From positions 18,430-47,004 of the forward strand of contig CAYQAC010000023.1 of assembly GCA_964415255.1 (NCBI GenBank): a stretch of 28,575 nt of DNA. The letters run 5' to 3'. This stretch comes from an uncultured Polyangiaceae bacterium. Lineage in GTDB: Bacteria > Myxococcota_A > Polyangia > Polyangiales > Polyangiaceae. A model generated the notes under the pieces. It made no database searches. It saw nothing but the letters and a program-made list of their open reading frames with translations, and had not been told where the DNA came from. Numbering within the stretch: position 1 is the first letter of the stretch; every line of letters begins with the position of its first letter. Shown here piece after piece: positions 9,128 to 20,458 of this stretch. A program made the translations under genes and the position numbers.

Positions 9128-10042
9128 CTAGCGGTAGCTCACCTGGAGCTCGAAGCCGCCCCACTCGTCGTCGTTCGAGGTGTCGAGGAATAGGTAGTAT
9201 ACCTGCCCTTCCGTCGCGTTGAACAGCAGGCTCACGGGGGCGAAGTTAGGGTCCGAGGCGCAGGCGATGGGTGATGGAGCACAGCTGCCCTCCGACACGT
9301 AGACGCTCTTCTCGAACGGGCCGGTCGCGTACAGCAGCACCTCACCGCTCTGTGGTGCGGTGAGCGCGAACACCAGATCCCCACCCCCCTGGGAGCCGCC
9401 GCCGCAACGCGGGTTGTAGTGATCGCGAGCGGAGCCGTTCGAACCCTTGATGGTCCAGCACTCGGTGCCGCTGGGTAAGGCCTGGCCGCTGCACGTGTCG
9501 GCGGTGGACGTCGACGTCACCGTCAGGCAGCCGCCCGAACCACCTCCCGAGCCCCCGGAGCCTGAGCTCCCGCCCGAGCCGCCGGTTGCGCCGCTGCCGC
9601 CGGTCGCGCCGCTGCCACCTGAGCCGCTAGTGGCGCCGCTGCCGCCGGTTGCGCCGCTGCCACCGGTTGCGCCGGTTGCGCCGCTGCCGCCAGTGGCACC
9701 GCTGCCGCCAGTTGCGCCACTGCCGCCCGCCGCGCCACTGCCGCCCGAGCCGCCGGCGCCGCTGCCCCCAGCGCCCGCTCCACCTGAACCCCCCGCGGCG
9801 CTGCCGCCCACGCCGCCCGTGCCAGCAAAGCTGCCGCCCGCGCCGCCTGCGCCACCGCTCGCGGCTGCGCCGCCCGCGCCACCGCTATTCCCTGCGGCAC
9901 CGCCGTCGCCGCCGCTCGCCCCCGAGGCGTCAGGGCTCAGCGGGATCTCACCGAAGCCCACGTCCGTCGCGCAGCCCACTCCAGCCCAGGGGAGCAGCAG
10001 CGAGATGACGGTCAGGGCGTGACGGGTGACGTGAGGGCGCAC
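9128..10042 (-). CDS. Lipoprotein with a long Gly/Ser/Ala/Thr-rich repeat linker and a Cys-containing beta-rich C-terminal domain (pre-peptidase-C-terminal-like; function unknown)
   Basis: GTG start. The signal peptide plus lipobox is ...LLLPWAGVGC. About 140 aa of GGSGAT-type repeats follow. The folded-looking tail is CLTVTST...GQVYYLFLDTSNDDEWGGFELQVSYR. The Pro-rich antisense ORF 9447..10022 lacks any start context or domain outside the repeat. Confidence 0.75.
   Translation of the reverse strand: MRPHVTRHALTVISLLLPWAGVGCATDVGFGEIPLSPDASGASGGDGGAAGNSGGAGGAAASGGAGGAGGSFAGTGGVGGSAAGGSGGAGAGGSGAGGSGGSGAAGGSGATGGSGATGGSGATGATGGSGATGGSGATSGSGGSGATGGSGATGGSGGSSGSGGSGGGSGGCLTVTSTSTADTCSGQALPSGTECWTIKGSNGSARDHYNPRCGGGSQGGGDLVFALTAPQSGEVLLYATGPFEKSVYVSEGSCAPSPIACASDPNFAPVSLLFNATEGQVYYLFLDTSNDDEWGGFELQVSYR
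9540..9900 (-). repeat. In-frame coding tandem repeats (18-bp GGTTGCGCCGCTGCCGCC-type units on the + strand, encoding GGSGAT on the - strand)
   Basis: Visible runs ccggttgcgccgctgccgcc / ggtcgcgccgctgccacc / agtggcaccgctgccgcc / agttgcgccactgccgcc. They lie within CDS 9128..10042. Confidence 0.8.
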
Positions 10043-13247: not shown

Positions 13248-13382
13248 ACCGTCTGCGTGGCTGAGTAGCGTCTACTTGGCGGGCTATCGTCTGCCTGGCT
13301 GACTAGCGTTTAGCTGACTACTGTCTGCGTAGCTGACTAGCGTTTGGCGAGCTGACTACTGTCTGTCTGGCTGACTAGCTCC
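13248..13382. repeat. About 3.5 degenerate tandem copies of a 35-38 bp unit rich in CTGACTAG/CTGACTAC (GTCTGCGTRGCTGACTAGCGTTTRGCGAGCTGACTACT)
   Basis: Read directly: ...gtctgcgtggctgagtagcgtctacttggcgggctatc gtctgcctggctgactagcgtttagctgactact gtctgcgtagctgactagcgtttggcgagctgactact gtctgtctggctgactagct. The array overlaps the stop codon and last codons of CDS 13337..14578. Confidence 0.8.
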
Positions 13383-14578
13383 CAGAAGCTGCGGTAGCCC
13401 CGCGCGCTTTGGTGCGCGTGGAAGGCGCTGAAGGGTTGGAGCAGCGTCGCGGTGCGGTGCCCAGGTAGCTGCGCTGGGTGGCGCCGGCCCTGGTCCAGGT
13501 AGGCGCGGATGAAGGTGGTGTCAGGCTCCGTCGGCAGCGCCTTCAGGTTGGCCACCCAGCGCGCCCAGGTGACGGGCTCCGTGAGGTACTGCTCCACGTT
13601 CGAGGTGTAGAACACCCGCACGGTCAGCGCGTCTTGGGTGAGCTCGGCGCCAATCTTCGCCAGCGCGTGCTCACCAGCGAAGTCTCCGACCACGGGGATG
13701 ATCTGGTGACGCTCCTGGAGCGACTTCACGAACGCGTAGTCCTCAGGCGTCATAAGGAAGCTCCCGTGCCCCGCGTGCTCTGCCAACAGCAGCTGCTGGA
13801 GGCTCGGGTAGCTGCGGCCGTTCTCCTGATGTAGCGAGAAGCGCAGCTCCATCTGGGCGTCGATGAAGGCCTGGTGGGTGCTCTTCAAGGTCTCTCGGTC
13901 AGCTTCACTGAGCTTCACCCCCAGGGCCTCAATGTGCCGCACCAAGCGCGCGTGGACGCGCGCCGCCTCGTCGGGCGTAGGTGCCCCCTCTGGCAAGCGC
14001 GCGAGCACCTGTGAGAGCCCCTCAGGGCGCTCGGCGCTCGTCGCCTCGAGCTCGCCGTCGTGCCCCAGCAGGCGCGCCAAGAAGGTCAGCCTGCCTGGCG
14101 ATTCGGCGAAGAGGGCCTTGTAGAGCAGGTGGAGCAGCGCGTTCCCACGTCGAATATCGATGAGGTAGGCGCGCTCAGGTCGCGCTTTGGCGATGTAGCT
14201 GAAGTTCTGCTCCGGCCCCACCCCGAGGTAGGCGCCGCCGGGGCGCCGCTCGGCGAGCTGTTTTGCGACCTGGAGGTAGGACGTCTCGTTGGAGACGTAG
14301 TTGTCGCTGAAGAAGTAACGATCGGGCTCAGACAGCTGCGCGAACTTGGCGCTGAAGAGCGCGGCCTGCTCAGCTGCTTGCTGGGCGGCTCGGTCAGCCT
14401 CGCTCGGGGCGGACGGGCCTGCTATCGTCAGGGAGGCTGTCTGTGAGGCGGCCGGCGCGCTCGCGCTAGGCTCCTGCGTCGCTCCGGCGGCGCCCACCGA
14501 CCAGGGGCGTGGGCCTCCTGAGCAGCTGGTGAGCGCCAGGGCGGCGAGCGACGCGGTCAGGAGCGCTGCGCGCTTCAT
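13337..14578 (-). CDS. Conserved-looking lipoprotein of unknown function
   Basis: The ATG at 14578 gives MKRAALLTASLAALALTSCSGG (signal peptide plus lipobox). The body contains well-composed blocks (YLGVGPEQNFSYIA, YLIDIRRGNALLHLLYKALF, IIPVVGDFAG) that I cannot assign to a named family. The 178-codon upstream extension of the track ORF (to 15112) is Arg/Pro/Ser-rich and overlaps the divergent gene. Confidence 0.75.
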   Translation of the reverse strand: MKRAALLTASLAALALTSCSGGPRPWSVGAAGATQEPSASAPAASQTASLTIAGPSAPSEADRAAQQAAEQAALFSAKFAQLSEPDRYFFSDNYVSNETSYLQVAKQLAERRPGGAYLGVGPEQNFSYIAKARPERAYLIDIRRGNALLHLLYKALFAESPGRLTFLARLLGHDGELEATSAERPEGLSQVLARLPEGAPTPDEAARVHARLVRHIEALGVKLSEADRETLKSTHQAFIDAQMELRFSLHQENGRSYPSLQQLLLAEHAGHGSFLMTPEDYAFVKSLQERHQIIPVVGDFAGEHALAKIGAELTQDALTVRVFYTSNVEQYLTEPVTWARWVANLKALPTEPDTTFIRAYLDQGRRHPAQLPGHRTATLLQPFSAFHAHQSARGYRSFWELVSQTDSSQLAKR

Positions 14579-14905
14579 GAGCCAGCGACTCGAGCGGGGG
14601 GCTGAGGGCTGTTTTGGGGGCGCGCCGCGCGAGGTGGAGCCGCGACGTGGGAGGGCGAGCGGGGAGCGGCTCGTCACAGGGAGCAGGCAGGGAGGCCAGG
14701 GCGAGGGGGTTTGGGGGTTGGTCACGATGGTGTGCTTCGAACGCCGCTGCCTAGCGCTTGGATTCCCTGCGCGTGAGCGCCGGTGTGCGTGAGCGCGCCA
14801 CGCGGCGGACATGCTAGGCTTGAGCGGCGCTGAACGCGAAGCGGGCTCACGGGGCGCCGCCAGACACCCGACAGCGCAGCCGGCAGGAACTGCACGTCGA
14901 GCCCC

Positions 14906-16198
14906 GTGTCGAAGCTCCTCATGCCCCGCGACCCAACGTCCGAGCACCCAGGCGCTCCTCATCAGGATCAGCCTGTGGCTGAAGGGGGAGCGCCGGAGCT
15001 CGCCGCGCCTGAATCGGAGGCGCCGGTGGTGCGAGCGAGCCGCGTGGCCGCGCTCGGGCGCTCGCGCTGGGACCAGCTGGTCGGTGCGCTGGTCGCCTCC
15101 GTGGCGCTCCACGCCTTGGTGGTGGCGCCGGTGGTGCTCTTGGTGGCGCCCTCAGGGGCTGAAGCCCCGCCGCCGCCTGACGTGTGGGCGGGAGCGACCC
15201 TGGACGTCGCGCTCGCGGAGCTGGCGGGGCCTGAGGAGCTAGCGGGCGCCGAGCCTCCCGGGCTCGCCGCCGCACAGCCGGACGCGCCGCCACCCGCTGA
15301 GCCTGTCGCCGCTCCGCAGCCAGTGGCCTTGGCGGCGCCGCCAAAGGCGCCAGAGGCGCCAGAGGCGCCCACCGCTGAGCCGGCATCGCCGAGCGTCGCG
15401 CCCGCGCCGCTCGCTTTACCGCCGCCGGTCGCCTTTCCCAGCCCCCTTGAACCCAGCGAGCCGACGCGGCCGCGCCGCGAGCACGCCAAGGGCCCCCCGG
15501 ATCGCTCCGGGCGAAGCGGGCGGACCCCTCGGCGCCGCGCTGAGCGGCGCGCGTGGCGGCGAGACGAAGAACAGCGTGAGGCGCGGCGAGGTGAGCGGCG
15601 AGATGAGGCGCGGCGAGCAGCGCGTGGTGGGCGCGGTGGGCCCCCTGCGTCGGCGCCGAGCGCCTCGGGAGCGCCCCCTGGTTCGTCCGTCGGGGAGGCC
15701 GCTGGCGCGGCTCCGGACACACCGGGCGCGGCCGGGCTACCGCGCGGCGTCCGTCAGCTGCCCACCGCGCTCACTCGGGTGCTCCCGCGCGTCGCGGTAG
15801 GTGACGCGCGCTTCACCGAGCATGCACCTGGTTTCCTTGGGGAAATTAAGTTCACGATCGCCGTGAGCAGCGCCGGGGCCATCACCGAGGTGACGTTCGC
15901 GCCCGACAGCGATCCGCTGCTTCAAGGCTTGGTGGAGCGCGCCGTGCGCTTCTTGGGAAAGGGTCAGTTCGCGTTGCGTGACTCGGCTGAGGAGCTGGGA
16001 GGCGTGCAGCAGGTGATCTTGAAGGTGACGCTCAGTCAGGGCGCGCCCGATGAAGACACGGACGATCCGTCAGCGACCCGGTCTATCGGCTTCGATCCAC
16101 CGAAGCCAACCAGCGACGGCGCGCGTCGCGGCGTTGGTTACTTCGAGCTTCAAGGCGGGCTGCGCTTGGAGCTCGCCACCCATTTCGCGAGGGACTGA
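14906..16198 (+). CDS. TonB-like / proline-rich membrane-anchored protein
   Basis: The architecture is an N-terminal single TM (LVGALVASVALHALVVAPVVLLVA), a long Pro/Ala/Glu-rich spacer, an Arg/Glu-rich segment, and a C-terminal ~110-aa mixed alpha/beta domain (GEIKFTIAVSSAGAITEVTFAPDSDPLLQGLVERAVRFL) resembling a TonB C-terminal fold. The start codon is uncertain. The antisense ORFs 14919..15722 and 14968..15720 are low-complexity shadows. Confidence 0.6.
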   Translation: MSKLLMPRDPTSEHPGAPHQDQPVAEGGAPELAAPESEAPVVRASRVAALGRSRWDQLVGALVASVALHALVVAPVVLLVAPSGAEAPPPPDVWAGATLDVALAELAGPEELAGAEPPGLAAAQPDAPPPAEPVAAPQPVALAAPPKAPEAPEAPTAEPASPSVAPAPLALPPPVAFPSPLEPSEPTRPRREHAKGPPDRSGRSGRTPRRRAERRAWRRDEEQREARRGERRDEARRAARGGRGGPPASAPSASGAPPGSSVGEAAGAAPDTPGAAGLPRGVRQLPTALTRVLPRVAVGDARFTEHAPGFLGEIKFTIAVSSAGAITEVTFAPDSDPLLQGLVERAVRFLGKGQFALRDSAEELGGVQQVILKVTLSQGAPDEDTDDPSATRSIGFDPPKPTSDGARRGVGYFELQGGLRLELATHFARD

Positions 16199-16364
16199 GC
16201 GCCTGACGAAGGGGAGCGAGCGCAGGGCCAAGCGCTCTGGAGCGAGCTGTTGAGGCGCGGTTCGCGAAGGAGTGAGCGTGGCGCATGGTCGCGGTGAGCG
16301 GCCGCGCGTCACCTCTGGGTGCTAACTAGAGCGCATCCAGGAGCGTGAGAGGGGATATGAGCGC

Positions 16365-16612
16365 TGTGGATAACTTGGGGCAGCTTGTGGATAAGCTGCG
16401 ACTAGCGTTGGGGTTGAGGTCTTGTCCGTCGCCTCGGGCGAGCTGAGGTGCGCGCCCTCGTGATGCTGGATAGCCAATAAAATACGCGCGATCGGCGGCG
16501 CTTGGGGCGGCGTCTTCATGTGCGTCGCCTTCATGCGCGGCAGCGCGTCGTAGCGCTGGCGCCGGCAGAATATCCATATGGATAGTGGTAGCTGTGGATA
16601 ACTCATGGATAA
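16365..16612 (+). promoter_or_regulatory. DnaA-box cluster: three perfect TGTGGATAA (= TTATCCACA) 9-mers plus at least three 2-mismatch boxes
   Basis: The perfect boxes are at 16365-16373, 16386-16394 and 16593-16601, all in the same orientation. The degenerate boxes are ATATCCATA at 16570-16578 (opposite orientation), TATGGATAG at 16577-16585 and CATGGATAA at 16604-16612. An AT-rich patch (TCGATTCATGATTTTTGAG) follows immediately at 16622-16640. I saw no perfect box anywhere else in the window. Confidence 0.65.
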
Positions 16613-16641
16613 CTTCTGCTGTCGATTCATGATTTTTGAGC

Positions 16642-16670
16642 TTGCGTAAGTGGCAAGTTGGAGGCATAAA
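16642..16670 (+). promoter_or_regulatory. Possible sigma70-type promoter TTGCGT-N17-CATAAA pointing into the ORF-free region
   Basis: The -35-like TTGCGT is at 16642-16647, followed by an exact 17-nt spacer and the -10-like CATAAA at 16665-16670. This is a pattern match only, and consensus rules for this phylum are uncertain. Confidence 0.25.
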
Positions 16671-18740
16671 CAGGTCTGGAAGTTCGCGGGCCATTCGGGT
16701 CGCGGGCATCTCGAAGGTAGAGGTCATTCGGGGCACCTCGGGCGCAGCTTGCTGAGCCCGGTCTCCGCGCGGTGGGAGAGCGTTCAAGAGCTCTCATCGG
16801 GTGGGGTCAAACAGGGTGTTGACACCAGGCTTGCCGCGTCAGGCCTGGGTCGAGCCAGCGCGAGCTGGTCCACGGGTGGCCGAAGGGGCTCTGGCCTCTC
16901 CGGGTTCGTCAGCTTTCGCGAGCGGGCGGTTTCGGGTGGGTCTTGACGGGTTCGGTGTCGCTGGGTGTCTCTAACGCACAGCGGCTCGGGTTTCGTGACG
17001 AAGGGGCCTTCGGTGATGGGCGAGTCGGCGGTGTATCCTACCGGGAGCACGCTGGGTCGAACGTCGCCGGCCGCCAACGGGTGCGTGGTCGGTGTCGATG
17101 GGCACTAGGTCAGGCACACTCACTGTTGGTGGCCACGTGCTGCGTCGCAGCGCTGCCGTGCAACTCGTTTGCAAGGTGGCCCACTGAGCGCAGCCAGCCC
17201 GGGCGACCCACCAAGGCATTTGTCGAGGTGGCTAGCGGGGGCTGAGTGGTCTTCGGGTGTTCGTGGCGGTGCTCGTGTCTCCATGACAAGTGGCAAGGTC
17301 CTGTGGGGTGGGCGCACGCTTCAAGCGGCGTCTGCTCACTCAGGGCACAGAGGGTCCCTCGGGGGGCTTCATGGCTGTGGCGGTCACGCGTCGCGGTCTG
17401 GCCTCCCTTCGGCTCTGGGTCCTCCTTGAAGCTCCTCCGCCTGCGAAGGCGGGCGGGGCCGAGGCGTCAAAAAGCGCCTCACGGGGAGTTCAGAGTGACG
17501 GGTGTCGGGTAGAGCGCTGCGTTTCGGCGGAGCGGTGTGCCAGGCGCCTTGGGGCCTCAGAAGCTCGTCGCTTCATCACTGGGTCGCGCCCTTTGGCAAC
17601 TGCCAAGGGTGCTGTGGCCACGGTGGCACCATCAGGGGGAAGATAACGCCCCCAAGTGGAGCAGAGCGGCGGAGGCGGAAGCTGAGCGGCTGGCGTGAAC
17701 CAGCGGCTCAGCCTGCGGCGCGCGGCGCCCCGTGAGGGGTGAGGTGGGTCGTGGGTCACTTGGTCTAGGAGCGCGGGTGCGCGTCTTTGACATGCAGGTT
17801 GCAATGACTGGTCGAACGCATCTTGGGTCGGCTCAGGTCGCTAGCGCGAGCTAGCGGTTGGGTCCGGTCTAGTGTCGAGTGAAGCCGGGTTGAGCGGCGC
17901 GTAGAGAACCTACGCTCCTTTCGTCCTGGTGGGAGAGAGGCATGAATGGGTGCGCTGGGTAGGGGTTGGTTTGAACGCTGACTCCAGGCCTGGGCCTAGG
18001 CTGCTCGCTCGCGAGTGGGCTTAGGTGATTCGACACAGAAATAGGTGCGCTGGAGCGCGCACAGTGGGTCCCTCTAACCCGGGGCTCGCAGGTGGCGCTC
18101 CAACCCGCGGGTTAAGCCTCTGGCTGCCCATCGGTTTGTGACGCGCAGGGCCCAACGGTGCCGTAAGGAACCTGGTGGGAGCGGCGGTCGACGTCTGAAC
18201 AAGGCTCGGTCACCGCGCTGCGATGCGCGAAGGTGTTTCACCCTCGCGTAAGCGTCACACGGCCGAGAGGTCGCTGGAGAGGAGCTCGCACAGCCGGTTA
18301 GAGCCGGTGGTGTGAGCTGCCCGTAGGGTCTAGGTGTTGGGTCGTCTTGGGGTGCGGCTCGAGTAAGTCAGGTTCGGTGACGAACATGGCCTGTTCGGGT
18401 TCGCTGGCGTCGCCGCTGTGCGGCGCTCGTACCAGGGCCCCCGTAGGTGAGCGAGCTGCCGGTAACGGCGGTGCGTCGCCCATGTTCATCTGAGCGCATC
18501 AGCGGAAGGGGTTAGGTGGTGTCAGGCTCCCTCAGCCTTCATCGATGACGCGTAGCGCTCCTAGCAAGGAGCACCCCCACAGCGGGGCTACGCCGAGATC
18601 GGGGCGCAGGGGGTCTGCTGTCCGGTGGCAAGTGCCGCCGGCTTCGGTGACAGCGAGCGGGCTTCGGTCTGCCGCTGCTCCCAGCGGAGTGTTATCGCGC
18701 GGAAATGGTAGCACCCCGCGTCGTGTCAGCTGACTCGGCG

Positions 18741-18794
18741 GTGGCCTTGGGCCACGTTCGTGGCCTTCGGCCATGAAGTCGCGGCCTTTGGCCG
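18741..18794 (+). repeat. Three consecutive related mini-hairpins built on GGCC-TTN-GGCC
   Basis: The hairpins are GTGGCC-TTG-GGCCAC (18741-18755), GTGGCC-TTC-GGCCAT (18760-18774, with a terminal G-U pair) and CGGCC-TTT-GGCCG (18782-18794). The last two are each followed by TGAAG. Confidence 0.7.
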
Positions 18795-19444
18795 TGAAGC
18801 TGAGCCAGGGCGCGCCTCCTTGAGGTGGGTTTTCGGTCTGTGCCGGCGTTGCCGGTGCTGTAACGAGCCCTCCTCGCAGAGCGCGCTGGCGTGGCGCCGA
18901 CGACAGTCGACGCAGCGCCCTTCAGGGCCTTTCAAAGGGGGCCTTGGAGTCACGACGAAGCCGGTGCAGGCGCCACGACGTGTGTGACGGCCGTGTTGAC
19001 GGTGGTGAGCCACGCTGTTGGGGTTTGTGTTCGCACAGCTCTAATAGTGGGGTGGGTTCTTGCTCATGCTTCGCGTGAGGAGGAGGCCGAGCCACAGTTT
19101 CACAGCTCAGCACACCTTAGGGACTAGCCATCGAACCTCCGCCAAAGCTCGACACGCGAGCTCACCCGCTCCCCTTGAGGGTTGCCGCTTGGCCCACCAA
19201 GCGGTGGGTTGAGTGTCCTTGGTTTCCCGTGAGGGTCATCAGGGTCCGGCAGTCTTCAGGCTGTCAGCGTGTCCACTCGAGTCTTGCCCCGCCAGCGCGA
19301 ACTGCGCGAAGGCAGAGGAGAGAACCTGCATGAAGTCGTCGTGTGTCACGGCGCGCTGCGAGCGCGTCGTGGAGGTAGATGAAGGCGTTGAACGCACGCC
19401 AGAGGAGCTTGATTGCTCCCCATCAACCAGCGCACTTCCCAAAA

Positions 19445-19479
19445 GCGACCCGGGTGACCGGGTCGCTTTTGCTTTTTTG
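19445..19479 (+). terminator. Canonical Rho-independent terminator (possibly bidirectional)
   Basis: The stem is GCGACCCGG (19445-19453), the loop is GTGA, and the return stem is CCGGGTCGC (19458-19466), followed by TTTTGCTTTTTTG. An upstream CCCAAAA gives a weaker 4-U tract for the minus strand. Confidence 0.8.
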
Positions 19480-19507
19480 TCGCGCGCTTCCCAGGCGCTG
19501 CGGTCAC

Positions 19508-19684
19508 GCCTTCGATGCGTCGGTGCGCTGAGCGCTTGGCGGCGCCGAGCGCGCTACCAGGCGCAGACCTGCGCTGAGCGCGATGCGTTTGCGTGACGCT
19601 TGGCTTCGATGCGTCCGTGCGCTGAGCGCGATGCGTTTGCGTGGCGCTTGGCTTCGATGCGTCCATGCGCTGAGCGCGCTTGCC
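19508..19684. repeat. 48-bp tandem repeat, two full copies plus partial copies at both ends
   Basis: The unit is GCGCTGAGCGCGATGCGTTTGCGTGRCGCTTGGCTTCGATGCGTCCRT. Full copies are at 19571-19618 and 19619-19666 and differ at 2 positions. Partial copies are at 19508-19545 and 19667-19684. Confidence 0.85.
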
Positions 19685-19692
19685 GGCACCGC

Positions 19693-20458
19693 TCAGCTGC
19701 GCCCGACGACCTCGATGGGGGAGATGGGGAAGACGCGTGGGTCCTTGCCGCGGTCGAAGCGCACGCGGATGATGTTCCCCACCGCGACCTTGGGCATCGA
19801 CTCACTACGGACGAGCCAGGCCTCCTCGTCGCGAAACGACGCACCGCCAGCGGCTGGGGTGACGTCCACCAGGGCTAGCACCAGCGTGCCCCCCTTCACG
19901 TAGTCCACCTTGAGGACAGCCACCTTGACGAACCGCGCGCGCCCCTCGGCGCCGAAGTTGTAGACCAAGGCGGAGACGAGGTGCGGCGCGATGAAGCGAA
20001 CGAGCAGCGCCGCCGCCGCGAGGCGCCAGCAAGGCGAGCCCTAGCTCACCCTGAACGGCTCGCAGCGCAGCCCACCCAGCGCCCGCGAGCGACCCGCTGA
20101 TCAACAAGAAGACGATCAGCATCGCGCCCCATTGCATCGGCATGCGGCGCGTGAGTCGGAACAAGAGCGGCGTGATGAGCTGCTTCACGGCCTCTGAGGC
20201 CTCGGCCTGCGTCACCGCGGCGTGCTCGCTGTAGAGCGCGATGGCTTCATCCTGGCGCCCAGCGACGACGAGCTGCTTCACCTGCTCGACGATGGCGTGC
20301 GGCACCTGGTCGGCGGCGAGCCTCACGGGGCCGGGCGTCGCGGGATCGGCCACGACGCGCACGCTGGTATTGCAGTAGGCGCACAGCGCGATCTGCTGGG
20401 TGGCCTGGAGCGGCAAGGGCGCGCCGCAGTGGGGACAAGTCAGGGTGTGTGCCTGCAT
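19693..20458 (-). pseudogene. Zinc-ribbon / L7-L12-CTD-like / two-TM / beta-rich C-terminal domain membrane protein, apparently split by a frameshift near 20020-20040
   Basis: The ATG at 20458 has GAGGAG 5 nt upstream and gives MQAHTLTCPHCGAPL...CAYCNTSV (a CxxC...CxxC zinc ribbon). Next come VKQLVVAGRQDEAIALYSEHAAVTQAEASEAVKQL and a TM segment (WGAMLIVFLLISGSLAGAGWAAL), after which the frame decays into Arg/Gly junk. The frame of ORF 19693..19968 is open back to 20040 and reads WRLAAAALLVRFIAPHLVSALVYNFGAEGRARFVKVAVLKVDY..., with no ATG or GTG start before the TTG at 19968. The junction sits in a GCGGCGGCGGCG run. Confidence 0.6.

Follow-up and report, generated by a model that had tools for sequence, protein, structure and literature searches.

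What does a bacterial genome that is otherwise densely coding carry in a long stretch without open reading frames (ORFs)? The stretch considered here, 16200-19692, lies in a window of 28,575 nucleotides (the whole piece of DNA that was analyzed) from an uncultured Polyangiaceae bacterium. A first-pass annotation, made from sequence alone, read it as a non-ribosomal structured RNA of ~2.7 kb on the + strand, running from a promoter at ~16.65 kb to a terminator at 19.48 kb, and named decayed DNA and an origin-adjacent spacer as alternatives. Our analysis supports the leading reading, with transcription inferred rather than observed. We consider it likely that a very large noncoding RNA (ncRNA), structured and with multiple domains, has a stand-alone gene at 16676-19478 of the + strand, and that this gene is conserved in several Polyangiaceae lineages.

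The claim that the stretch has no believable ORF held. The spread of GC content among codon positions is at most 0.16 throughout 16151-19600, compared to 0.3-0.5 in flanking genes. No Pfam match was found for the longest ORFs (80-153 aa) in 16200-19692, and the ORF translations of the region had no relative in a database of 5.8 billion proteins. The 325 substitutions relative to the closest relative (L001) split 114/109/102 by position modulo 3 and thus lack 3-base periodicity. Likewise, the 728 variable columns among four homologs that are 72-80% identical (group B) split 238/251/239, with no periodic 150-nt windows. A check for pseudogene fragments, which the annotation had called for, was run and gave no coding signal; 16676-19478 is non-coding. 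The G/T skew that had been reported, including the hand-counted lines and the fading of the skew past ~18.85 kb, was confirmed on recount. Between 16501 and 19000, GC skew ranges from +0.10 to +0.24 and AT skew from -0.13 to -0.22, with base counts of A18 C45 G74 T43 in 16861-17040 and A4 C12 G28 T16 in 18301-18360; past 18851 the skew is weaker (A108 C186 G209 T126).

Six other Polyangiaceae assemblies contain homologous regions, also free of genes, which lie in two different gene neighborhoods; the carriers include several soil and sludge myxobacteria. Four homologs (L086, L091, L095 and L100) were found by nhmmer with E-values of 1e-32 to 1e-35 and a fifth (L106) with 7.5e-20, in a different gene context. 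The predicted RNA is 88% identical to that of L001, and the two match without a difference over stretches as long as 78 nt; third codon positions of the neighboring genes are 75-90% identical, and the RNA region is more conserved than the synonymous sites of adjacent genes. The region is therefore under strong purifying selection. Conservation is blocky, with lineage-specific insertions between blocks, indels are hairpin-shaped and unrelated to reading frame, and the order of domains is collinear across all homologs. The locus lies at a synteny breakpoint between lineages. It is a single, vertically conserved locus that has diverged to an extent consistent with the neighboring FtsH and EVE proteins. 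Two metagenome scans yielded no further homologs, so the known range is narrow.

These comparisons correct the limits of 16200-19692 given in the annotation. Conservation across homologs begins at a DnaA-type box ~85 nt 5' of a common promoter and extends over 2.3-2.9 kb to a common intrinsic terminator, which places the functional unit at 16593-19478 in the window. The segment 16200-16570 is a poorly conserved spacer, essentially unalignable, that bears two further DnaA boxes.

Folding predictions distinguish the two strands. In 300-nt windows compared to dinucleotide-preserving shuffles, the mean fold z-score of the + strand was -2.75 inside the region and -0.63 outside it, while the - strand inside the region scored -0.60, against a background of -0.6 to -0.7. 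Minimum free energies were -1417 kcal/mol for the + strand and -1067 kcal/mol for the - strand. The modeled folding excess is thus confined to the + strand, which meets the criterion for a structured ncRNA. All ten short hairpins listed by the annotation are present at the positions it gave (10/10) and are retained in the closest relative, some via compensatory changes. Its count of the hexamer CTTCGG was also correct, with exactly six sites at the positions claimed (six in the 3.5 kb of the region compared to nine in the remaining 25 kb).

Compensatory changes support the predicted pairs in several alignments. In group B, 120 of 766 predicted pairs carry compensatory double changes, compared to 39 +/- 5 (maximum 53) in shuffles, and the consensus energy is -920 compared to -559 +/- 13 in column shuffles. 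An alignment of six sequences contains 196 pairs with double changes (83 +/- 8 in shuffles). In a seven-sequence alignment of the 5' domain (A1), paired cells make up 94% of the total, and both sides have changed in 56 of 125 pairs. The corresponding number in shuffles was 28 +/- 3, none of 500 shuffles reached the observed number, and slid controls gave 6-16 double-changed pairs. The predicted pairs, which make sense on the + strand only, have been preserved through compensatory changes. The annotation had asked for conservation outside the strain and for covariation; the former was found and the latter is well above shuffled controls. The sample comprises seven sequences from approximately three lineages, so the covariation events are phylogenetically few, and the controls were not corrected for phylogeny.

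The features of the predicted RNA, all on the + strand, are as follows.

16676-19478, + strand: structured ncRNA of 2803 nt, from a conserved 5' end CTGGAAGTTCGCGG to the T-run of the terminator; transcription inferred
16678-16687, + strand: 5' strand of the predicted terminal helix, GGAAGUUCGC, pairing with 19430-19439
16676-17267, + strand: 5' domain, closed by helix 16699-16716 / 17251-17267, with 18 helices in the seven-sequence consensus
17269-17780, + strand: central domain, closed by helix 17269-17280 / 17769-17780 (12 bp, 97% paired, 3 covarying pairs)
17781-19339, + strand: large 3' domain, closed by helix 17781-17800 / 19323-19339 (16 bp, 100% paired)
17804-17816 / 18029-18042, 18044-18051 / 18493-18500 and 18502-18520 / 19126-19142, + strand: closing helices of 3' sub-domains
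18739-19032, + strand: lineage-specific expansion, nearly missing from group B homologs
~18239-18390 and 19170-19267, + strand: further expansions
19430-19439, + strand: 3' strand of the predicted terminal helix, GCGCACUUCC, directly before the terminator
19441-19478, + strand: intrinsic terminator, a 13-bp stem with GUGA loop (19441-19470) followed by a T-run

The 5' domain is the slowest-evolving part, with 16803-17142 ~96.5% identical to L001. The terminator proposed by the annotation at 19445-19479 held, and its position is conserved in all homologs: a 13-bp stem with T6-7 is present in six of six full-length homologs, three pairs of the stem show compensatory double changes, and the only strong terminator of each homolog is the one at its conserved 3' end. 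Across six sequences, pairing reaches 95% or more in five long-range helices with a length of 8 bp or more, compared to 0.55 +/- 0.74 (maximum 3) such helices in shuffles. These helices, including the one joining the 5' and 3' ends, suggest one multi-domain RNA. The terminal helix is 100% paired in six sequences; because it is invariant save for a change from U-A to U-G, it provides no true covariation. When the 5' domain is folded in isolation, part of the 5' strand of this helix (UUCGC) pairs locally with a downstream CCGCGG stretch instead. Compensatory changes in long-range pairs (13, compared to 16 +/- 5) do not exceed shuffles, and the global architecture consequently rests on helix length and quality alone. 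We propose that the locus produces one transcript whose two ends pair; long-range helices would close its three or four large domains, and peripheral hairpins would grow and shrink between lineages as rRNA expansion segments do.

The conserved block is bounded by the common promoter-like element and the common terminator. Upstream of the predicted RNA start are the following elements.

16365-16373 and 16386-16394, - strand: two perfect DnaA boxes TTATCCACA, reading TGTGGATAA on the + strand; consensus match, no binding data
16571-16585, no strand: palindrome ATATCCATATGGATA, formed by two DnaA-like half sites that are inverted and imperfect; conserved in L001
16593-16601, - strand: proximal DnaA-type box TGTGGATAA; consensus match, no binding data
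16604-16612, - strand: imperfect second box CATGGATAA, ~11-12 nt after the proximal box
16642-16670, + strand: promoter-like element with -35 TTGCGT (16642-47), a 17-nt spacer and -10 CATAAA (16665-70)

The annotation had guessed a promoter at 16642-16670, and this held insofar as a promoter-like element, inferred from sequence alone, is conserved in all homologs: hexamers and spacing are kept in seven of seven sequences (TTGnnT-17-CATAAA) while the spacer sequence diverges. The -10 hexamer lacks the usual final T. A DnaA-type box, identified by consensus match without binding data, is located at a fixed distance 5' of the promoter. A perfect TGTGGA(T/C)AA is present at -84/-85 in six homologous sequences and at -73 in L106, with binding to DnaA inferred. 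The window contains three perfect boxes, compared to 0.82 matches expected at one mismatch or fewer. In the window and in L001, three perfect boxes and additional imperfect ones fall within 250 bp, compared to only one or two boxes in distant homologs. The pair at 16365-16394, ~300 nt 5' of the RNA start, forms a conserved island within the unalignable spacer; it is limited to the window and its closest relative and is missing at that position in group B. A short AT-rich tract adjoins the DnaA boxes in the window. All box assignments (TTATCCACA / TTGTCCACA type) rest on consensus match only, and whether DnaA regulates the RNA gene, an inference made without binding data, could equally well be answered either way. 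If it does, DnaA bound at about -85, and at the two to four additional boxes that this genus carries, would couple synthesis of the RNA to the replication or growth state.

Several other interpretations of the locus can be considered. One is that it is a tandem cluster of smaller, independent structured RNAs, or a precursor cut into them. This could explain why most covariation support falls in local hairpins and domains of 150-600 nt, why long-range compensatory changes do not exceed shuffles, and why conservation is blocky with lineage-specific insertions in between. However, each homolog has a single promoter-like element at one end and a single strong terminator at the other; domain order is collinear; five long-range helices were found where 0.55 were expected; and the very start of the RNA is predicted to pair with the segment directly before the terminator. 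We regard a cluster as unlikely. Decayed coding DNA, whether pseudogene remnants or the remains of a mobile element, would account for a long ORF-free stretch in a densely coding genome. It is all but excluded because the region is conserved, more so than its neighbors' synonymous sites, and without any protein match, either in Pfam or among 5.8 billion proteins; its substitutions also lack 3-base periodicity and its indels follow hairpins, not frame. This alternative of the annotation thus failed.

The locus could instead be a DNA-level replication element, either a chromosomal or secondary origin or a DnaA-titrating locus, with the skewed stretch as an origin-flanking spacer or R-loop zone. 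The cluster of perfect TTATCCACA and imperfect boxes in the window and L001, the adjoining AT-rich tract and the G-rich non-template strand 3' of the promoter are consistent with this. Against it, neither dnaA, dnaN nor any other replication gene is found in the 28.5-kb window or at the homologous loci, whereas in Sorangium, a member of the same family, the predicted oriC adjoins dnaN (PMC2650636). Cumulative GC skew rises through the site without a minimum at 16.4-16.6 kb, although in a short window this is weak evidence. Moreover, distant homologs keep one or two boxes yet retain 2.3 kb of downstream sequence. The downstream changes preserve base pairs, including G-U, and the folding excess is on the + strand only, a pattern expected of RNA rather than of duplex DNA. 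A replication element is very unlikely, and the origin-adjacent spacer proposed by the annotation fails for lack of nearby dnaA or dnaN, of a skew switch, and of more than one or two boxes in distant homologs. A canonical oriC was rejected on the absence of replication-gene adjacency and of a skew sign switch, the latter being weak evidence in so short a window. We consider it similarly improbable that the locus encodes an ornate RNA of a phage or mobile element, such as a GOLLD- or ROOL-type self-assembling RNA-only cage on an integrated element. Large size, high structure, conserved loops, narrow distribution and the synteny breakpoint would fit, and GOLLD and ROOL are the nearest known size class (PMC12286853). 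Yet there was no Rfam match to GOLLD, ROOL or another family at E<=10, the surroundings lack integrase, phage or tRNA-island genes, phage, plasmid and IMG/VR collections contained no match to the region, and the locus is single and vertically conserved, diverging like its FtsH and EVE neighbors.

The reading as a structured-RNA gene was also compared to known RNAs. The annotation's failure to match the region to known families was borne out: with Rfam 15, the whole window had no match at gathering score to any family, including rRNA, RNase P, tmRNA, SRP, 6S, OLE, GOLLD, ROOL, HEARO, raiA, group I/II introns and riboswitches. When the cutoff was relaxed to E<=10, nothing but five sub-threshold chance matches, at the terminator, came up for the region, and nothing at all for the L091 homolog. 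A group II intron was rejected, as there was neither an Rfam intron match nor an ORF with a Pfam domain. Like GOLLD, ROOL and OLE, the Polyangiaceae RNA would be a stand-alone gene with an unusually large, intricate fold, in which loops and junctions are invariant and the peripheral helices vary, and with a narrow taxonomic range and no known biochemical function. In contrast, at 2.3-2.9 kb it matches none of their covariance models, and it is found in a non-phage chromosomal context in Myxococcota with a DnaA-type box at its promoter. It shares with 23S rRNA a length class (~2.9 kb), several domains closed by long-range helices, ends predicted to pair, lineage insertions that act as expansion segments, and highly conserved unpaired segments. 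It differs in having no similarity to LSU or SSU models at E<=10, in its location outside an rrn operon with no 16S, 5S or tRNA nearby, in being G/U-rich and not purine-rich, and in its restriction, as far as visible, to one bacterial family.

Parallels to DnaA-associated loci are partial. As at DnaA-controlled promoters and box clusters outside oriC (reviewed in PMC8203912), consensus 9-mer boxes lie 5' of a promoter, but the controlled gene would be a giant ncRNA instead of a protein gene, there are no binding data, and distant homologs keep only one or two boxes. The same-orientation box cluster with a short AT-rich tract in an intergenic region of the window and L001 resembles oriC. Unlike oriC, the locus is away from dnaA/dnaN and lacks a skew inflection, distant homologs have not kept the box cluster, and the conserved part is the downstream, inferred transcript, which evolves under RNA-pairing constraints. 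CcnA of Caulobacter (PMC8959179) is an ncRNA tied to the replication and cell-cycle control network, as is inferred here. No sequence relation to CcnA was seen, and Rfam finds nothing in the region. CcnA is a small base-pairing regulator, unlike the kilobase-scale folded RNA predicted here.

Taken part by part, a conserved structured-RNA gene is very likely, with transcription inferred. A single RNA of 2.3-2.9 kb (2.8 kb here) is likely, with start site, transcript length and RNA stability inferred. We speculate that the RNA works in trans, as a stably folded molecule, and is neither a leader nor a regulator that acts by base pairing. That it is an RNP scaffold or a ribozyme is our best guess, one we would not favor over its negation. 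A bolder reading, toward which the evidence leans slightly, is that the locus provides the first example of a bacterial RNA class not described before: single, stable, multi-domain, non-ribosomal, 2.3-2.9 kb long, vertically inherited in Polyangiaceae, and with a promoter wired to DnaA. Non-rRNA structured bacterial comparators (OLE, ROOL and GOLLD), each a source of new biology, reach only ~0.6-0.8 kb, and the predicted RNA is ~3x longer than GOLLD, at >800 nt the largest of the three (PMC12286853) and the largest described comparator checked. If correct, the size range of these comparators would be extended several-fold, in free-living myxobacteria, and RNA architectures on the scale of rRNA, other than the ribosome, would persist in modern bacteria. 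Such size and conservation would be expected of the core of a large RNP machine or ribozyme with a cellular role not yet recognized. The conserved DnaA-type box, for which there are no binding data, suggests a link between replication control and a giant ncRNA that has no precedent in the literature searched. The locus is a concrete, clonable target, with promoter, ends and domains defined from its sequence. Just past its terminator, 19480-19692 is a strain-specific tandem repeat.

The element within window positions 16200-19692 is conserved, non-coding and structured specifically on the + strand, and its homologs share a promoter-like site, a terminator and, upstream at a fixed position, a DnaA-type box. 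The surrounding genes show that the window (GC content approximately 68%) is a segment of a myxobacterial chromosome whose nearest relative is a Polyangiaceae MAG. Across 16151-19600, the difference in GC content among codon positions is at most 0.16, compared to 0.3-0.5 in the flanking genes, and no ORF in the region exceeds 153 aa. The first-pass annotation, made without database searches, had reported that the region contains no believable ORF, and this claim held. Its hand counts of a G/T skew agree with base counts showing enrichment of G and T on the + strand, and all ten hairpins and all six CTTCGG hexamers that it listed were confirmed in place. It had also described the region as hairpin-dense. 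In 300-nt windows inside the region, the mean fold z-score computed against dinucleotide-preserving shuffles was -2.75 on the + strand compared to -0.60 on the - strand, which resembles the background of -0.6 to -0.7, and thus hairpin density on the + strand does exceed chance.

The neighboring FtsH, used to scan species-representative genomes, identified a single close syntenic relative, Polyangiaceae bacterium ACE_MYX1 (locus L001; FtsH 95% identical), in which the same gene-free region is present. The RNA was not found at the FtsH locus of two more distant Polyangiaceae (L002 and L003). Apart from islands surrounding the DnaA boxes, positions 16200-16570 are essentially unalignable to L001. 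Conservation begins at a promoter-like sequence, TTGCGT-17 nt-CATAAA (16642-16670), in which the hexamers are kept and the spacer has diverged, and blocks of 90-97% identity, with perfect runs of up to 78 nt, extend to the terminator at 19441-19478. Because third codon positions of the neighboring genes are only 75-90% identical, the region is more constrained than synonymous sites. The substitutions have a transition/transversion ratio of 2.2, and the indels are hairpin-shaped insertions. Substitutions in predicted pairs preserve pairing in 61% of cases, compared to 46 +/- 3% in column-shuffled controls, and 17 pairs are doubly compensated, compared to 6.3 +/- 2.7 in shuffles. Relative to window positions 17427, 18146 and 18360, L001 has inserts at approximately 16160-16245, 16925-16952 and 17167-17214. 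These inserts, within the RNA, are short, duplicated and hairpin-forming (repeats of CTGTAAGCTCAGCCGCC and TCCTTCAAAGGAGC are examples) and show fast gain and loss of peripheral stem-loops.

More distant homologs were revealed through an EVE-domain protein encoded 1.5 kb to the right. Several contigs carrying its homologs have a gap of about 3 kb without called genes, 5-9 kb from the EVE gene, and these gaps were matched by nhmmer with the window region as the query. The 3' 220 nt matched separately, at approximately 1e-17.

Homologs of the RNA: source, E-value of the nhmmer match to the 5' half, and length of the unit, measured from the 5' motif CTGGAAGTTCGCGG, common to the homologs, to the terminator
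Window: query; 2803 nt
L001 (close relative): 2933 nt
L095 (group B): GCA_041389745.1; 9.5e-35; 2303 nt
L091 (group B): GCA_020633205.1; 1.4e-34; 2474 nt
L100 (group B): Logan DRR438478; 1.2e-32; 2359 nt
L086 (group B): GCA_050183255.1; 6.1e-32; 2392 nt
L106 (partial): Logan ERR12082727, truncated by the contig end; 7.5e-20

Within group B, the four sequences share 72-80% identity with one another and approximately 51% with the window. Here too, identity rises at the DnaA-type box, from approximately 0.45 to approximately 0.85, and it collapses past the T-run. L095 lies on the same contig (JAWKRF010000015.1) as L003, the FtsH locus without the RNA. At loci of EVE homologs with 66% identity or less, no large gene-free gaps were seen; the nhmmer profile gave no match in the first two sets of these loci, and those in the last two sets (L121-L128) were judged from gene tables only. 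In group B, a divergent EAL/GGDEF operon lies on one side of the element, and Cu2_monoox_C or periplasmic-binding-protein/ABC genes lie on the other. The gap in L106 starts directly after a 67-aa gene and continues past the contig end. In the window, the element has a TonB-like gene on one side and a 91-aa gene on the other. AT-rich AATCAA/ATCAAA repeats occur at L091 15925-15975, with equivalents in L086, L095, L100 and L106, approximately 350-400 nt upstream of the RNA and, in group B loci, near where the divergent EAL/GGDEF operon begins. These repeats are probably a promoter or operator of that operon, outside the RNA gene.

Compensatory changes are more frequent than in shuffled controls. 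For group B alone (n = 4), the RNAalifold consensus energy was -920 kcal/mol compared to -559 +/- 13 for column shuffles, and 120 of 766 predicted pairs showed double compensatory change (39 +/- 5 when shuffled, maximum 53). For the six full-length sequences (all but L106), these values were -606 compared to -230 +/- 11, and 196 of 653 pairs compared to 83 +/- 8. A seven-sequence alignment of the 5' domain (window 16676-17110) contains 125 pairs in 18 helices, with 94% of cells paired. Both sides changed in 56 of these pairs, compared to 28 +/- 3 in shuffles, none of 500 of which reached 56, and to 6-16 pairs when the 3' partner was slid by 1-3 columns. In a single 18-bp hairpin, 15 positions covary, and the terminator stem has three covarying pairs. 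These statistics rest on seven sequences from approximately three lineages without phylogeny correction, and the A-versus-B alignment is uncertain within the variable middle. The frequent G-U intermediates, together with a minimum free energy of -1417 kcal/mol on the + strand compared to -1067 kcal/mol on the - strand, place the constraint on a + strand RNA rather than on duplex DNA.

The consensus fold of the six full-length sequences predicts the following architecture.

Predicted features of the RNA (window coordinates)
16678-16687 with 19430-19439, + strand: terminal helix
16699-16716 with 17251-17267, + strand: closing helix of the 5' domain
17269-17280 with 17769-17780, + strand: closing helix of the central domain
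17781-17800 with 19323-19339, + strand: closing helix of the large 3' domain
17804-17816 with 18029-18042, 18044-18051 with 18493-18500, and 18502-18520 with 19126-19142, + strand: closing helices of 3' sub-domains
19441-19478, + strand: terminator, preceded by a short 3' region

The fold includes five long-range helices that are 8 bp or longer and 95% or more paired in all six sequences; shuffles gave 0.55 +/- 0.74 such helices (maximum 3). Compensatory changes in long-range pairs did not exceed shuffles (13 compared to 16 +/- 5), so the global multi-domain architecture, as predicted by the model, is likely and remains unproven. Expansions at approximately 18239-18390, 18739-19032 and 19170-19267 are specific to the window and L001. 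Each homolog has one strong terminator, the terminal one. Two invariant segments that both contain CGCG, UUUCGCGAG (approximately 16914-16922) and GCCGCGUCAG (16831-16840), lie in or beside hairpin loops in all seven sequences; a loop-loop (kissing) contact between them, intra- or intermolecular, is conceivable from sequence alone.

A perfect DnaA-type box, TGTGGA(T/C)AA, is present at position -84 or -85 in six sequences and at -73 in L106, usually with a second, imperfect box about 12 nt downstream. In the window and L001, a further pair of perfect boxes lies about 300 nt upstream, and there is also a half-site palindrome. The boxes are followed by a T-rich tract and then, in seven of seven sequences, by a -35 TTGnnT, 17 nt, and a -10 CATAAA. 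DnaA is known as a transcription factor (PMC8203912), and the fixed position of the box suggests that DnaA may activate or repress this promoter, which would link the RNA level to replication or growth state. This inference comes from box match and position without binding data, and we consider it as open to doubt as to acceptance.

Several other explanations were considered. If the region were decayed genes, as the first-pass annotation had allowed, substitutions should retain a trace of codons. The 325 substitutions relative to L001 are divided 114/109/102 by position modulo 3, variable columns in group B are divided 238/251/239 with no local window periodic, and translations of spurious ORFs have no relatives in the protein database, through which no homologous regions were found. 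With conservation also above that of synonymous sites, this alternative failed. A small ORF from ATG 19331 has an SD-like GGAGAG upstream but was rejected: its frame passes through the terminator, codon-position GC is flat, and about half of the substitutions relative to L001, as read from the pairwise alignment, are non-synonymous. UGGGUC, with 11 copies compared to 1.8 expected in 16676-19478, was considered as a repeated protein-binding motif and rejected: the copies are mostly inside G/U-rich stems and are kept only in part in L001. The annotation's other alternative, an origin-flanking element, is not supported: a canonical oriC was rejected because neither the window nor the homologous loci contain dnaA or dnaN, the cumulative GC skew has no inflection at the site over this short window, and group B does not retain the cluster of boxes. 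Sorangium belongs to this family, and its predicted oriC lies beside dnaN (PMC2650636). Plasmid or phage sequence was rejected as well, since blastn against both gave no matches, nor did a scan of IMG/VR for the pattern of promoter and 5' end common to the seven sequences.

We favor transcription of the element as one RNA of 2.3-2.9 kb, which is likely but inferred without expression data. The structure and conservation of the large non-coding RNA proposed by the first-pass annotation held, as did its terminator (19445-19479), the sole strong one at the conserved 3' end, with a covarying stem. Its possible promoter (16642-16670) is conserved in position in all seven sequences, with function inferred from sequence. 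Among the checks it suggested, conservation in related genomes (L001 and five distant homologs) and compensatory changes (above shuffled controls, uncorrected for phylogeny) were passed, and the Rfam scan matched no known family. The paired ends, multi-domain fold and invariant unpaired segments suggest a stable molecule that would act in trans, as a ribonucleoprotein core or ribozyme; this functional reading, made by analogy with other very large structured RNAs, is tentative, and we hold it with less than even confidence. A base-pairing regulator or cis leader seems less likely still, and the differing gene neighborhoods point to an autonomous unit, not the leader of a particular gene.

Searches at gathering and permissive thresholds, with the window and one distant homolog, found no Rfam family. 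GOLLD, ROOL and OLE, all large ornate RNAs, come closest in kind; the largest of these, GOLLD, exceeds 800 nt (PMC12286853), and the Polyangiaceae RNA, as inferred, would be about three times longer. Unlike these, it fits no covariance model, has ordinary chromosomal surroundings and bears, by sequence match, a replication-initiator box at its promoter. In size and domain logic it is nearest to 23S rRNA, but it does not match a covariance model. Since no such RNA is described for Myxococcota in the literature searched, we rate it as a new class. In metagenome scans, a 22-mer taken from a block without any variation had no matches, and a 14-mer with purine/pyrimidine-code flanks had three, none similar to the RNA by nhmmer and probably due to chance. 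These scans preceded knowledge of the family-wide pattern CATAAACNNNTCYGGAAGTTCGCGGNNCAT, and the range of the RNA is established only for these Polyangiaceae MAGs.

Other features of the window were observed. Between the terminator of the RNA and a convergent 91-aa ORF (19693-19968, - strand), the gap is filled by 48-bp tandem and direct repeats (19510-19690; TGCGCTGAGCGCGATGCGTTTGCGTGRCGCTTGGCTTCGATGCGTCC is one such unit). L001 lacks these repeats, and they are therefore strain-specific and do not belong to the RNA. The DNA of the 91-aa ORF is 96% identical to L001, with second codon positions 100% identical. This ORF has no Pfam or NCBIfam match, its sole relative in a 5.8-billion-protein database is itself, and it is not beside the RNA in distant homologs. 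A 500-bp stretch at 9501-10000 with 80% GC and a GC skew of -0.21 falls within a 304-aa ORF (9128-10042, - strand) without a family match. A DUF7790/LIC_10091-like lipoprotein ORF (13337-15112, - strand) overlaps a proline-rich TonB-like ORF (14906-16198, + strand) by approximately 200 bp as listed, and therefore one or both start codons are mis-assigned; the two ORFs have 74% DNA identity to L001, far below that of the other neighbors.
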